In this document: positions 44,662 to 51,809 of the stretch, one piece after another | Layout: the number at the start of each line of letters is the position of its first letter | How positions within the stretch are numbered: the first letter of the stretch is position 1 | NCBI RefSeq assembly: GCF_054482525.1 | Contig: NZ_CM137006.1 | Direction: 5' to 3' (one strand) | Length of the DNA stretch: 64,000 nucleotides | Translations under genes and position numbers: made by a program | The notes under the pieces: generated by a model | What the model saw: only the letters and a program-made list of their open reading frames with translations | The model's database searches: none | Told to the model about the DNA's origin: nothing

Positions 44662-45372
44662 TCAGAGCAGATTTTGCTCCTTCTTTGCACTCAACCCGCC
44701 GTAATCATTTATCGTCCGCCAGGAGACATGACACGGTGCTATTGCCTGACACCAGCTTGTCTGACGCTGGCTTTTAGGTGGCACAACTCCCGCATTACTT
44801 AACGCTTTACCATTTACGCTCACCTGAATCAGGTTAATGTAGTAAGGCGTTGGGTTAGTGAGTTGTACACCCTGCGAATTCCGTGTCCAGCGTAATTGTT
44901 GATAAGCTTCCAGCGGGTCGCCCGGCAAACCTTCGGGTCGCCAGAACAGTTTAAATACCGAGCGCATCGCCACTTTTACGCTCTGATTTTCAACTTTGCC
45001 GGATGGCACGCTGGCAATGCTTAACTCAAATAGCGTTTCGCGATCCACAGGCAAGATGTCGCTTTCCGTTCTCAGCAAGCGCAACGTGCCTGTAGTACCG
45101 GGCTTCAGGAGAACAAGTGGTGGAGCGACCAGTAGTGGTGCTGACCCTGTCGATGCTTCGCCCCCGGCCCAACGCGTTGGGCGATTGATTTTACTGTTAA
45201 TAAGCCAGGATTCCTGACTGGTATTAGTCAGTGAAATAGATATCGATTCTCTGTCTGCCGGGAAGATAAATCGCGTTCCGCCAACCACCACTCCTGCCTG
45301 CAATTCCCCCGCCACCAGCAGCGATAAAACGGCAAAAATCGCGAGCGTCAATCTGTTCCACGTATTAGTCAT
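44662..45372 (-). CDS. ycbF: YcbF, periplasmic fimbrial chaperone (PapD-like)
   Basis: Track ORF 44662-45399; likely start MTNTWNRLTLAIFAVLSLLVAGELQA (signal peptide); PapD-like chaperone fold motifs. Confidence 0.85.
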   Translation of the reverse strand: MTNTWNRLTLAIFAVLSLLVAGELQAGVVVGGTRFIFPADRESISISLTNTSQESWLINSKINRPTRWAGGEASTGSAPLLVAPPLVLLKPGTTGTLRLLRTESDILPVDRETLFELSIASVPSGKVENQSVKVAMRSVFKLFWRPEGLPGDPLEAYQQLRWTRNSQGVQLTNPTPYYINLIQVSVNGKALSNAGVVPPKSQRQTSWCQAIAPCHVSWRTINDYGGLSAKKEQNLL

Positions 45373-45880
45373 AATGAAGTACAAATGTCGCGCTGGCATT
45401 CACTTTACCCGACTGCACATCGCTATTAACAGGTCGCAATTGCGCATAAAAAGTTAATGGCACCTTACCGCTATGTAGGCTGTAGTCTTTACTCGCCTGG
45501 TTAAGCGGAATCAATATTTTCGCATCATCCAGAATCGCAATTGCCAGCCCACTGGCTGCATCCGTACCACTTTCAATGGACAGCATTTCGCTCTGCATTC
45601 CGTCGGGTGTTCCTGAAAAGGTAACGTCAACCGTGCTGACATCTGTTCCGCAATCCTGCAAATTAATGATGAAAGATTTCTCCGGGCCATAGTTCCCATG
45701 AGAAAAACGTGTCAGCGAGACATCGCCTAACTGCACATTGATTTGCTTGCTATCCTGTGCCAGCACGCATGTATTACGGCGAAACGATCCGCTAATGTTG
45801 ACCGTGCCATCATGGGCAAATAGCTCACAACCCCCCGTTAATCCCAGTAAGAACAGAATCCAGATTATCCGTTTCAACAT
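45365..45880 (-). CDS. ycbV: YcbV, fimbrial-like subunit
   Basis: Track ORF 45365-45928; start at MLKRIIWILFLLGLTGG...; fimbrial subunit fold with conserved Cys pair. Confidence 0.85.
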   Translation of the reverse strand: MLKRIIWILFLLGLTGGCELFAHDGTVNISGSFRRNTCVLAQDSKQINVQLGDVSLTRFSHGNYGPEKSFIINLQDCGTDVSTVDVTFSGTPDGMQSEMLSIESGTDAASGLAIAILDDAKILIPLNQASKDYSLHSGKVPLTFYAQLRPVNSDVQSGKVNASATFVLHYD

Positions 45881-45887
45881 CACTCCT

Positions 45888-46430
45888 TCACTGGTAAACC
45901 AGATCAAAATAGAGAACCGCCGTCGCATTACCGCCCGTTGCTCCCGCCTTTGTGGACTTATAACGAAGTTGATATTTGAGTGTGTTATCCCCGGCTTTTA
46001 AGGGCGTAAGAGGCTGGACCTGATTGAGCGGGATTTCTTGCTGACTTTGCGCATCAAGAATTTGCACGGCAATCCCCGTTGCCATACCACCGCTTCCGCC
46101 TGTGTCAGTTAGTTTGAGCAGTGTCGGCGCAAGGGTGTCAGCCTCGCCGCTAAAAAGGACGTCCGCGCCAGTAATACCAGCGGCACAACCGGTGATATCG
46201 ATATTCAAATCAGCAGCAGTGCTTACGGTATTCGCGGCCTGAAAATCACTGATATTAAAATCACCAATATGAATATTTTGTAATGCACTTTTGGTGGCGA
46301 CATCACAGCCCTGATCGACCACATTCCCATAAATATGCATACTAACTTGTTCAGGCCCAGCCATCCCGACATGGGTGTTAAGAAAGCTAAAGAACAAGAT
46401 AACGTACTGAAATATTGTTTTTTTCTTCAT
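45888..46430 (-). CDS. ycbU: YcbU, fimbrial-like subunit
   Basis: 180-aa ORF with signal peptide MKKKTIFQYVILFFSFLNTHVGMA and fimbrial subunit C-terminus. Confidence 0.88.
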   Translation of the reverse strand: MKKKTIFQYVILFFSFLNTHVGMAGPEQVSMHIYGNVVDQGCDVATKSALQNIHIGDFNISDFQAANTVSTAADLNIDITGCAAGITGADVLFSGEADTLAPTLLKLTDTGGSGGMATGIAVQILDAQSQQEIPLNQVQPLTPLKAGDNTLKYQLRYKSTKAGATGGNATAVLYFDLVYQ

Positions 46431-46441
46431 ACGTTCACGCG

Positions 46442-50103: not shown

Positions 50104-50127
50104 CTCGCTCTCTTAACTGAAGACGGC

Positions 50128-50829
50128 TTACGATTTGCAGTTGAGTTGCGGCGTTTCCGCCCCGTAGTCATTGATGGTTCGGTACGTTACGCTGTTATTT
50201 TTGGCACCCTTTGGCAGAGAGAATTGGTATTTATCAAAGGGGGAAATCATTTGATTTTTAACTACCTTTCCACCTATTTTCAGGTCTGTCAGGGTAATGA
50301 AATAAGGTGTTGGGTTACTGACCGTAACCATGTCAGCTGACGAAGTGCAACGCAGTTTCGCCGGAGCCTCGGCTAAGGGATACGCTAAACCTTTTGGTCG
50401 CCAGAAAAGTTTGATGACGCTTTGTGTGGCAATCTTCAGGGTATTGCCTTCTTCCCGCTTCGTTGTTGAAGGGACTGCCCGTACGCTGGTGAAGAAAAGA
50501 GTTTCTCTGTCTTTCGCCAACGGCGCGCCAATGTACATAATGCGTAGCAGGTTCTCGTTTGCCGGATTTAGCACAAATAGCGGTGGTGTAATAATAAAGT
50601 CCGCTGACTTTTTATTATCTGGTGTCATCACCCATGACTGAATCAGATAAGGAACATCCGGACTGGTGTTACGTACACCCAGTGAAATTTGCTCTTCACC
50701 TTCCGAATAAACAAGACGTGTTGCTGCAAGTCCGACCCCACCTTTACCTGCCGCCCATGTGAACGAACAGCTGAGTAATATTGCCGTTAAACTTACGGTC
50801 ACAATTCCCTTTGTTATGCAAGTTTTCAT
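50128..50829 (-). CDS. elfD: ElfD (YcbR), periplasmic fimbrial chaperone
   Basis: 233-aa ORF with signal peptide (MKTCITKGIVTVSLTAILLSCSFTWA), PapD-like. Confidence 0.92.
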   Translation of the reverse strand: MKTCITKGIVTVSLTAILLSCSFTWAAGKGGVGLAATRLVYSEGEEQISLGVRNTSPDVPYLIQSWVMTPDNKKSADFIITPPLFVLNPANENLLRIMYIGAPLAKDRETLFFTSVRAVPSTTKREEGNTLKIATQSVIKLFWRPKGLAYPLAEAPAKLRCTSSADMVTVSNPTPYFITLTDLKIGGKVVKNQMISPFDKYQFSLPKGAKNNSVTYRTINDYGAETPQLNCKS

Positions 50830-50911
50830 AAATAGTCACTCTTAAAAAATATGGATATCCCCTCCAGAACACTGGAGGGGGACTAATTAATAAAACAATT
50901 AATGTGTTCTA

Positions 50912-51454
50912 TTAATAATAGTTAATATGAAAATCCGTTACCGCATTAACATTACCTGAAGTCGCTTTACCCGTAGCGATATAATCAACTTTAAAAGTCA
51001 CTGTTTGCTCAGCGGAATCCGCTAACTGAATATTCGACGTTTCAATACCGGGAGTTACCGATGTAGAACCATCTGGCAGATACATTTGTAGAGCAACATT
51101 CGTCGCTGCATCGGTGGAAGCCTGGTTGGCAAATGCTGTAGGTTGCACTCCGTCAGCCGTACCACTGAAGGTAAAAGTCGCATTTTTAGTTACAGTAACA
51201 TCACAGCCTTCTAAGGCAATTGGTACATCAGTTTTAACGCCAGAGACTGCACCATTAGTTTGCAACTTGGTGGCGCTGACATTTGGCAATGTGACTACTG
51301 AATCTTTGTTCGCAGCTACCAGCGAACAAGCTGGAGCAATGACTTTACCATTAAATGTTACTGAGCCATCCGTGATAGCATTATCATCAGCTGCCATAAC
51401 ACTGGACGTTGCACATACCACAGTTATAAACGCCGTCAATACACTTTTTTTCAT
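50912..51454 (-). CDS. elfA: ElfA (YcbQ), major fimbrial subunit
   Basis: Track ORF 50912-51463; start at MKKSVLTAFITVVCATSSVMAA; ends in the donor-strand motif typical of pilins (...AVTDFHINYY). Confidence 0.88.
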   Translation of the reverse strand: MKKSVLTAFITVVCATSSVMAADDNAITDGSVTFNGKVIAPACSLVAANKDSVVTLPNVSATKLQTNGAVSGVKTDVPIALEGCDVTVTKNATFTFSGTADGVQPTAFANQASTDAATNVALQMYLPDGSTSVTPGIETSNIQLADSAEQTVTFKVDYIATGKATSGNVNAVTDFHINYY

Positions 51455-51809
51455 CGTTATCATCCTGATCTTTTCGTAAATATGATAATGCCTTTAAATG
51501 ACATTGGACTTAATAATAACAACAATTGTCCGCCATTTAAATCAAGCATCTTTAATCCATTAAGTGACAAATCTTTAATTTATAGATTTCATGAATATTT
51601 TCTTATTGCCTGAATGAGTAATTCATTGATTCAACATCTAATGACTATCCAATAAATAAATATGCGTGATATATAAAGCCCTTTCTTTAGTTTATTTTCA
51701 GAAAAAGATACACAAAATTTATATTTGGCATTTTCTTGTCTCTCCGACAGACTGACCGAATTGTTATCAATGTTAACAAAAAAAGAACAATTGGTTATAA
51801 GGAGAGAGT
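51455..51809. promoter_or_regulatory. AT-rich divergent control region: elfA promoter (leftward) and ssuE promoter (rightward)
   Basis: 355-bp strongly AT-rich intergenic region, typical of nucleoid-protein-silenced fimbrial promoters. ssu expression is known to need CysB/Cbl sites upstream of ssuE; I did not locate the sites precisely. Confidence 0.5.

Follow-up and report, generated by a model that had tools for sequence, protein, structure and literature searches.

Gene content of the elf/ycb cluster

Seven consecutive minus-strand genes, elfA-elfD-elfC-elfG-ycbU-ycbV-ycbF, occupy positions 44662-51454 of the window, by which we mean the whole 64-kb stretch of DNA analysed. The open reading frames lie exactly where a preliminary description of this DNA had placed them, and its gene identities, order and strand are borne out by the PGAP annotation, by alignment to K-12 and by matches to Pfam, NCBIfam and PDB entries. 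The coordinates given here are those of the RefSeq/PGAP starts. Pfam E-values range from 1e-14 to 1e-221 across the seven frames, which can therefore not be due to chance. The genes overlap or are separated by 7-24 nt, except for an 82-nt elfA-elfD spacer, and pyrD directly follows ycbF, with no bcfH-like thioredoxin gene between them. The cluster matches the chromosome of E. coli PCN033 (phylogroup D) with 100% identity, and there the same seven genes are annotated from ssuE to pyrD; a Ycb cluster, PCN033_1033-1039, is listed for that strain (PMC4578781). Likewise, K-12 b0938-b0944 are collinear with the cluster, seven genes in the same order between ssuE and pyrD.

The first gene, elfA (ycbQ; 50912..51454), encodes a 180-aa major pilin (PF00419, E=1e-16; best NCBIfam match BcfA) that PGAP labels only 'fimbrial protein' and does not call elfA. 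On inspection, its translation shows a signal peptide ending in SSVMA before ADD, the sequence GSVTFNGKVIAPAC as N-terminal donor strand, and FHINYY at the C-terminus. Two minor pilins are encoded by ycbU (45888..46430, 180 aa; PF00419, 1.2e-14; NCBIfam BcfE, then FimF), which starts 11 nt after elfG, and by ycbV (45365..45880, 171 aa; PF00419, 6.4e-20; NCBIfam BcfF and FimF at ~114 bits each), which starts 7 nt after ycbU. PF00419 is thus found in ElfA, YcbU, YcbV and the C-terminal half of ElfG, and signal peptides, alternating-hydrophobic N-terminal strands before the first Cys and a penultimate aromatic residue were seen when the translations were read by eye.

The outer-membrane usher is encoded by elfC (ycbS; 47503..50103, 866 aa), which matches Usher PF00577 (1.9e-221), PapC_N PF13954 (6.8e-49) and PapC_C PF13953 (3.8e-18) and scores 1739.7 bits on the NCBIfam equivalog NF011740, against a cut-off of 995. 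Overlapping elfC by 10 nt, elfG (ycbT; 46442..47512, 356 aa) encodes a tip adhesin-like subunit with best NCBIfam matches to LpfD and BcfD. Its pilin domain (PF00419) is confined to residues 211-356, and residues 33-356 align with the solved structure of the LpfD adhesin (5AFO, residues 4-326; E = 7.6e-27). ElfG thus has the build of a two-domain tip adhesin, with a putative receptor-binding domain joined to a pilin domain and no N-terminal donor strand.

Both chaperones are PapD-like. The first, encoded by elfD (ycbR; 50128..50829, 233 aa), matches PapD_N at 4.7e-36 and PapD_C at 3.6e-15 and has BcfB and FimC as best NCBIfam models. The second gene, ycbF (44662..45399; PapD_N 2.9e-28, PapD_C 1.2e-14), overlaps ycbV and yields 245 aa from the ATG at 45399 chosen by PGAP or 236 aa from the ATG at 45372 used in K-12; the NCBIfam equivalog NF008483, on which YcbF scores 530 bits (cut-off 357), begins at Met10. 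Alignment of YcbF to FimC 6E14 shows that the cleft Arg (GGTRFIF) and Lys (FKLFWRP) are kept, and ElfD and YcbF both retain FimC's GxTR(V/F/L)I(Y/F) and (I/F)KL(Y/F)(Y/W)RP motifs, with 36% identity between them.

Conservation of the operon and divergence of elfA

The designation of the region as a known K-12 locus holds for the operon. The K-12 elfADCG-ycbUVF cluster (ycbQRSTUVF, E. coli laminin-binding or Ycb fimbriae) has the same site, genes and order, but the sequence here is of the PCN033 type and carries a different elfA allele. Across 10.4 kb of DNA aligned with K-12, the sole indel is one in-frame codon in elfA. Frameshifts or premature stops had been named in advance as findings that would make the cluster a decaying remnant; none was found, either gene by gene or in the whole-locus K-12 alignment, and all seven frames are intact, as had been claimed. 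Protein lengths equal those of K-12, except for ElfA (180 versus 179 aa) and YcbF, for which the annotated start differs. Amino acid identity to K-12 is 95-99% over the shared length for six proteins, each with 2-18 scattered substitutions, and 83% for ElfA; nucleotide identity outside the elfA core is 95-99% and forms a mosaic along the cluster (ycbU ~100%, elfG 89-100%).

ElfD is 97.4% identical to its K-12 counterpart (dN/dS 0.08) and ElfC 97.9% identical (dN/dS 0.05). A comparison of each subunit with K-12 had been proposed with the adhesin in mind, and ElfG proved to be 98.0% identical, with seven substitutions. The mature YcbU protein is the same as that of K-12, all three differences falling in the signal peptide, and YcbV (98.8%) has two differences, one of them in the signal peptide. 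Wherever substitutions are sufficient, dN/dS against K-12 is 0.05-0.27, ycbU being excepted with only four substitutions. The highest well-estimated value, 0.27, belongs to ycbF, whose product has 11 amino acid differences.

Could the cluster be cryptic through loss of function, as a decaying pseudo-operon? Laboratory expression is poor in K-12 (PMC5797941), the whole unit is missing from ~26% of complete genomes, and in a few genomes it is interrupted by IS1 or IS30 or has lost a part in a deletion linked to IS1; constraint on ycbF is also somewhat relaxed, and a ycbF mutant had no invasion phenotype (PMC4914927). However, seven intact frames of K-12-like length already largely refute such decay. 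In addition, dN/dS is 0.05-0.14 in elfA, elfD, elfC, elfG and ycbV despite dS of 0.08-0.76, and the K-12 and O157 operons yield fimbriae when expressed (PMC7098969; PMC5797941). We regard decay as exceedingly improbable, and are highly confident in identifying the region as the chromosomal elfADCG-ycbUVF (Ycb/ELF) operon, a gamma-1 chaperone-usher system in its PCN033 form, complete and under purifying selection. Nothing in the evidence contradicts the identification. The gamma-1 placement of Ycb follows the literature (PMC7098969; PMC4578781 Table 4). Ycb fimbriae are visible by EM and promote adhesion and biofilm formation when expressed (PMC7098969), and surface fimbriae binding laminin and epithelial cells are known for the O157:H7 and K-12 alleles only (PMC7098969; PMC4914927). 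This is a known locus, a textbook cryptic chaperone-usher operon of which the present copy behaves as expected, and its significance beyond correct annotation is small.

The exception to this conservation is the major pilin gene. ElfA is 83% identical to the K-12 protein (81% at the nucleotide level, one 1-codon indel), and the divergence is concentrated in a hypervariable core of 107 codons (codons 44-150; 51005..51325, minus strand) with 61-78% nucleotide identity to K-12, between flanks of 94-100%. Synonymous divergence in the core is saturated (dS = 1.82, dN = 0.175), compared with dS of 0.01-0.20 in the other six genes. Two allele classes were found, of 180 and 179 aa, and the PCN033-type class occurs in ~1,540 of 5,426 complete genomes. 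Tentatively, and with slightly less than even confidence, we propose that elfA exists in at least two ancient classes (180-aa PCN033 and 179-aa K-12) differing only in a central, presumably surface-exposed segment, where dS (~1.8) is about tenfold higher than elsewhere in the operon. Such a pattern would fit either long-term balancing selection, antigenic or phage-driven, or intragenic recombination that brought in a cassette from a different lineage. The same pattern is usual in major pilins, of which FimA is an example. We met no published description of the elfA classes, although the literature was not searched for them specifically. Should the classes differ in antigenicity or in receptor or phage recognition, knowing the elfA type would provide a typing or functional marker that is useful and not yet exploited. 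The non-K-12 allele also means that antisera, primers and phenotypes established with K-12 or O157 ElfA may not transfer to this strain.

Transcription unit and the elfA-ssuE control region

Divergent elfA and ssuE are separated by a control region of exactly 355 bp (51455..51809) that is 98% identical to K-12. The preliminary description had called it very AT-rich, and its GC content is indeed 0.282, compared with 0.510 across the window as a whole. A value this low is reached by only 0.06% of the 355-bp segments that can be taken from the 64 kb, and the minimum (0.270) is at the same place. The AT-rich tract extends into the 5' part of elfA, with GC of 0.27-0.35 in 300-bp windows at 51300-51749. 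Curran et al. 2017 treated elfADCG-ycbUVF as one operon, under three H-NS binding data sets (PMC5797941), and a passage of that article citing Korea et al. 2010 states that the elf operon is H-NS-repressed and cryptic. Over-production of SlyA raises the elf operon 2.7-fold, SlyA shifts the same 355-bp ssuE-elfA fragment of K-12 in EMSA, and both operons flanking the spacer are listed as H-NS-associated (PMC5797941). Since the spacer is 98% identical, the K-12 silencing inference can be carried over to this strain, where the elf promoter would likewise be silenced by H-NS. Transcription most likely begins within the spacer, which H-NS would normally coat, keeping the operon cryptic, and which antagonists such as SlyA could open.

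Within this region, the best sigma-70-like candidate upstream of elfA is TTTAAA-17-TGnTATTAT (51513..51541, minus strand), with 9/12 consensus positions and an extended -10, although in the consensus scan promoter-like matches in the region were not above shuffled expectation. The sequence TCAGGATGATAA, read directly at 51457..51468 (minus strand) just upstream of elfA, overlaps the elfA ribosome-binding site and is listed as a possible PssuE/elfA SlyA site in K-12 (PMC5797941). Scanning the spacer for TCGATAAATT, which we take to be the H-NS high-affinity motif, gave two matches at <=2 mismatches where 0.4 were expected, numbers too few to serve as evidence.

The spacer is common to both operons, and its composition would say little about elf silencing if its main role were to regulate ssuEADCB, the divergently transcribed sulfonate operon. 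In favor of such a role, the ssu promoter presumably has its Cbl and CysB sites here. The ssuEADCB operon, too, is given as H-NS-associated and SlyA-induced (PMC5797941). Genomes lacking elf, however, keep only 64-68 bp adjoining ssuE (GC 0.35), the remaining ~290 bp (GC 0.265) being lost along with the elf genes, and the AT-richness continues into elfA itself. We therefore consider it unlikely that the spacer serves chiefly ssu. How the spacer is apparently apportioned between the two operons is read solely from this presence/absence comparison.

The segment that is present or absent in the E. coli population (44652..51745, ~7.1 kb) takes in the seven genes together with ~290 bp of the AT-rich spacer, and is gained or lost in one piece. 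It is absent from ~26% of complete genomes, counted as those with the same 20%-coverage pattern as ATCC 25922. The ssuE-pyrD gap is empty in B2-type genomes, ATCC 25922 among them; in ATCC 25922, ~65-69 bp of unrelated T-rich DNA takes the place of the segment, and this B2 filler has no match anywhere in the window. No direct repeats or mobility genes were found at the borders of the segment.

This single unit of gain and loss supports counting ycbUVF in the operon. It is conceivable that elfADCG is the fimbrial operon proper and that ycbUVF is separately transcribed, or a functionally unrelated remnant of another cluster: a reference cited in PMC7098969 is given as the source of the first name, ycbQRST, nucleotide identity varies along the cluster in the mosaic described above, and ycbF is dispensable for invasion. 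Yet only 11 nt separate elfG from ycbU and only 7 nt separate ycbU from ycbV, ycbV and ycbF overlap, and the coding strand shows neither a promoter-like nor a canonical terminator-like site at the elfG/ycbU junction. All elfADCG-ycbUVF genes moved together in transcript profiling (PMC5797941), and Keio mutants of ycbU and ycbV share the loss of invasion seen with ycbQ, R, S and T, the ycbF mutant being unaffected (PMC4914927). The A-to-G gene order also agrees with bcf, and the population indel takes out all seven genes at once. We judge two separate units to be very unlikely, and treat the seven genes as one operon.

A GC-rich hairpin, CCCCUCCAG-UGUU-CUGGAGGGG (50859..50880, minus strand), lies in the elfA-elfD spacer and is followed by U6 at 50844-50849; the spacer has a folding z of -3.7 to -4.5. 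The hairpin is also present in K-12, and strain LP5-1, whose spacer is divergent, has at the same place a hairpin of 11 bp that differs in its inner stem. The U-run starts 9 nt past the stem, so the structure is no textbook terminator and escapes the terminator scan, in which the coding strand had no canonical terminator downstream of elfA, elfG or ycbF. In an Rfam scan covering 43400-52500 (E up to 1), the pyrD leader was the only hit. The conserved hairpin probably raises the major-pilin message relative to the downstream message, and makes a testable candidate for the element that sets the ratio of pilin to machinery.

Related fimbrial systems and proposed assembly

Gene order here is the same as in Salmonella enterica bcfA-G, and the best named NCBIfam match of each Elf/Ycb protein is the Bcf protein of the same position (A pilin, B chaperone, D adhesin, E/F minor pilins). 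YcbF matches PRK15192 and ElfC PRK15193, which we take from their consecutive model numbering to be BcfG and BcfC, respectively. Bcf has been called an orthologue of Ycb (PMC7886704). The Bcf equivalog cut-offs are nevertheless missed (score/cut-off in bits: BcfA 119/247, BcfB 207/365, BcfD 124/517, BcfE 125/240, BcfF 114/238 and PRK15192 209/296), and only the unnamed usher model NF011740 passes among the Bcf-assigned models; Elf is therefore a homologue of Bcf with the same architecture rather than a member of the same named family. The bcf cluster also has an eighth gene, bcfH, and another chromosomal site. Auf fimbriae, from phylogroup B2, are a close relative of Ycb, and the two are mutually exclusive across phylogroups (Wurpel et al. 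2013, PMC3559732); Auf is encoded at another locus and is typical of B2, and the stretch here carries Ycb.

By homology, all seven products would be exported by Sec, after which the periplasmic chaperones ElfD and YcbF would cap the incomplete Ig fold of the pilins via donor-strand complementation. Assembly at the ElfC usher would begin with the two-domain adhesin ElfG, which lacks an N-terminal donor strand; the FimF/FimG-like adaptors YcbU and YcbV would be added next, and ElfA would be polymerised last into the shaft through donor-strand exchange. For YcbF, the likeliest role is that of an accessory chaperone, or a partly redundant one, serving some of the minor subunits; it may be dispensable, because its mutant had no phenotype in one study (PMC4914927) and its gene has the highest well-estimated dN/dS of the operon (0.27).

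The same assembly machinery is found in type 1 (fimAICDFGH) and long polar fimbriae (lpfABCDE). Likeness to type 1 is seen in the FimC-like chaperone with its cleft Arg and Lys, the FimF-like adaptors and the FimD-like usher (ElfC scores 947 bits on the FimD subfamily model), and likeness to long polar fimbriae in ElfG as an LpfD-like two-domain adhesin. The elf cluster differs in that its adhesin gene precedes the adaptor genes and a second chaperone gene is present; it also appears to have no fimB/fimE-type recombinases or invertible promoter, as judged from the lack of such open reading frames here.

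Identity and integrity of the elf/ycb locus

Window positions 44662-51463 are filled by seven long minus-strand frames in the ORF listing, between the divergent neighbor ssuE (51810-52385, plus strand) and, on the other side of the cluster, pyrD (43541-44551, minus strand). The chromosome of PCN033 is 100% identical across window 44400-52000, and the RefSeq names for that stretch are, in operon order, fimbrial protein (at the elfA position), elfD, elfC, elfG, ycbU, ycbV and ycbF. PCN033 is a phylogroup D, porcine extraintestinal pathogenic E. coli whose gamma-1 'Ycb' cluster is designated PCN033_1033-1039 in its genome paper (PMC4578781). 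The same site in K-12 MG1655 is occupied by the same seven genes (b0938-b0944). The ORFs, the PCN033 annotation and K-12 synteny thus confirm the preliminary description of a seven-gene elf/ycb cluster at a known K-12 locus, and the interpretation given with it is supported.

Gene-by-gene comparison with K-12 revealed no internal stops in any of the seven genes. Lengths equal those of K-12 with the exception of ElfA (180 aa vs 179 aa in K-12) and YcbF, for which the annotated starts differ, and the 10.4-kb alignment of the whole locus to K-12 contains a single gap of 3 nt, in-frame and inside elfA. All frames are therefore intact, as originally proposed. Amino acid identity to K-12 is 97.4% for ElfD, 97.9% for ElfC, 98.0% for ElfG, 98.3% for YcbU, 98.8% for YcbV and about 95% for YcbF (225 of 236 shared residues), and falls to 83.3% for ElfA. 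Nei-Gojobori dN/dS values against K-12 are 0.05-0.14 for elfA, elfD, elfC, elfG and ycbV and 0.27 for ycbF; the ycbU value is meaningless, as it is based on 4 substitutions only. Decay into a pseudo-operon, the alternative named at the outset, is unsupported given the lack of stops, the single in-frame gap and dN/dS ratios of 0.05-0.27.

Within ycbU (45900-46400), identity to K-12 is 100% over about 400 nt, with adjoining segments at 89-98%, and the 3 amino acid differences of YcbU all lie in its signal peptide. This identity mosaic suggests recent recombination inside the operon.

A single gained or lost module with an AT-rich control region

Among 5,426 complete E. coli genomes, the flanks of the locus were matched in 5,425, at least 80% of the region was covered in only 3,999, and elfA was present in 4,013. 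The entire elf unit is missing from about 26% of the genomes, one example being ATCC 25922. In elf-negative genomes like this one 236 bp separate pyrD from ssuE; unrelated T-rich DNA, about 65-69 bp long, stands in place of window positions about 44652-51745, and its junctions show no repeats. What is gained or lost as a unit comprises precisely the seven genes and, of the AT-rich spacer between elfA and ssuE, about 290 bp (GC 0.265); only the 64-68 bp of spacer adjoining ssuE are common to all genomes. Because these components are present or absent together, the data support the earlier view of an 'extended' seven-gene cluster as one module, as well as the attribution of the AT-rich DNA mostly to elf and not to ssu. 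Insertions of IS1 or IS30, or a partial deletion linked to IS1, occur in a few genomes. Published work describes Ycb as absent from B2, and Ycb and the related Auf fimbriae as mutually exclusive (Wurpel et al. 2013, PMC3559732). As a consequence of the T-rich replacement, the DNA upstream of ssuE past about 65 bp is not the same in strains with and without elf, and the regulation of ssu could be affected.

The spacer (51455-51809) was described as a very AT-rich 355-bp region upstream of elfA, and it is exactly 355 bp with a GC content of 0.282, compared with 0.510 for the window and 0.475 for the operon; just 0.06% of 355-bp windows across the 64 kb have equally low GC. The second most AT-rich stretch closes the window (63409-64000), with 355-bp windows down to GC 0.31. 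In K-12, Curran et al. (PMC5797941) found that over-production of SlyA raised elfADCG-ycbUVF 2.7-fold and ssuEADCB 3.6-fold, listed each of the two under three data sets on H-NS binding, and stated, citing Korea et al. 2010, that the elf operon is cryptic and H-NS-repressed. The SlyA site that they proposed, TCAGGATGATAA, was found at 51457-51468. As the spacer is 98% identical to that of K-12, these findings make silencing in the window strain a well-founded expectation. The best sigma-70-like match, TTTAAA-17-TGnTATTAT at 51541-51513, is a candidate promoter, although the spacer region shows no enrichment of such matches.

Genes within the operon are closely packed, with spacings of 24 nt (elfD-elfC), 11 nt (elfG-ycbU) and 7 nt (ycbU-ycbV) and overlaps of 10 nt (elfC/elfG) and 8 or 35 nt (ycbV/ycbF). 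The 82-nt elfA-elfD spacer is the only structured one (folding z = -3.7 to -4.5). It contains a GC-rich, 9-bp hairpin (50859-50880, minus strand) with U6 9 nt further on, the whole element spanning 50844-50880. K-12 has the hairpin too; in strain LP5-1, whose spacer is divergent, a compensated hairpin of 11 bp whose inner stem differs occupies the same position. To judge from other fimbrial operons, the element may serve as a partial terminator (attenuator) or as an mRNA stabilizer favoring the major pilin message. No terminator was found downstream of ycbF before the PyrD leader (Rfam RF02373, 97.9 bits; 44546-44619, minus strand), which begins 42 nt past the ycbF stop, and elf transcription could therefore read through into pyrD.

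Chaperones, usher, adhesin and minor pilins

The named NCBIfam model that each Elf/Ycb protein matches best is that of the Salmonella Bcf protein in the same operon position (BcfA, BcfB, BcfD, BcfE and BcfF). The usher matched PRK15193 and YcbF matched PRK15192, which, judging from the consecutive model numbers, would be BcfC and BcfG. Bcf has been called the orthologue of Ycb (PMC7886704). Since bcf has counterparts of both YcbF and the additional subunits, these protein-family matches show the seven-gene layout to be common to two homologous operons rather than an E. coli oddity.

ElfC has PapC_N, Usher (E = 1.9e-221) and PapC_C domains. Both ElfD and YcbF contain PapD_N and PapD_C (Pfam) and retain the Arg and Lys with which FimC anchors its subunits; the two chaperones are 36% identical. 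Deletion of ycbF in K-12 left epithelial invasion unreduced (PMC4914927), and we conclude on this basis that YcbF probably acts as an accessory chaperone or is redundant in part. Its start is annotated at ATG 45399 by PGAP (245 aa) vs ATG 45372 in K-12 (236 aa). The NCBIfam model of YcbF starts at the second Met, and this, together with the shape of the signal peptide, favors the downstream ATG 45372.

ElfG aligns over residues 33-356 with LpfD, a two-domain adhesin of solved structure (5AFO; E = 7.6e-27), which justifies the label 'tip adhesin-like'. PF00419 is present in ElfA, YcbU and YcbV, and in ElfG it covers residues 211-356 only. Translations of all seven proteins have plausible Sec signal peptides, and an N-terminal donor strand can be read in ElfA, YcbU and YcbV and is absent from ElfG. 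Only 7 substitutions separate the adhesin from its K-12 allele (E57A, A139G, F188Y, V258I, S280T, I297V and I313T; window residue first). YcbV and YcbU resemble FimF (114 and 76 bits, respectively; NCBIfam), which fits putative adaptor subunits joining adhesin to shaft. Because deletion of either ycbU or ycbV in K-12 cut epithelial invasion, as did elf gene deletions (PMC4914927), we conclude that both are working minor subunits.

ElfA allele classes

ElfA is the one real difference from K-12 in this locus. Identity of elfA to K-12 is 61-78% between about 51000 and 51300 and 94-100% in the flanks; codons 44-150 (51005-51325) have a dS of 1.82 and a dN of 0.175, compared with dS values of 0.01-0.20 for the other six genes. 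Major pilins that are antigenically exposed usually show this kind of pattern. Across complete E. coli genomes, elfA identity to the window allele forms distinct bands: 1,543 genomes are at 95% or more, 2,306 at 80-90% (alleles of K-12 type) and a more distant 158 at 60-80%. PGAP does not apply the name elfA to the window-type allele, and we found no published description of the allele pattern, a point for which the literature was not searched specifically. Five representatives fall into a 180-aa and a 179-aa class, which divide the genomes roughly 1,543 to 2,306; signal peptide, donor strand and C-terminal strand show conservation, and these two classes may constitute an old balanced or an imported polymorphism.
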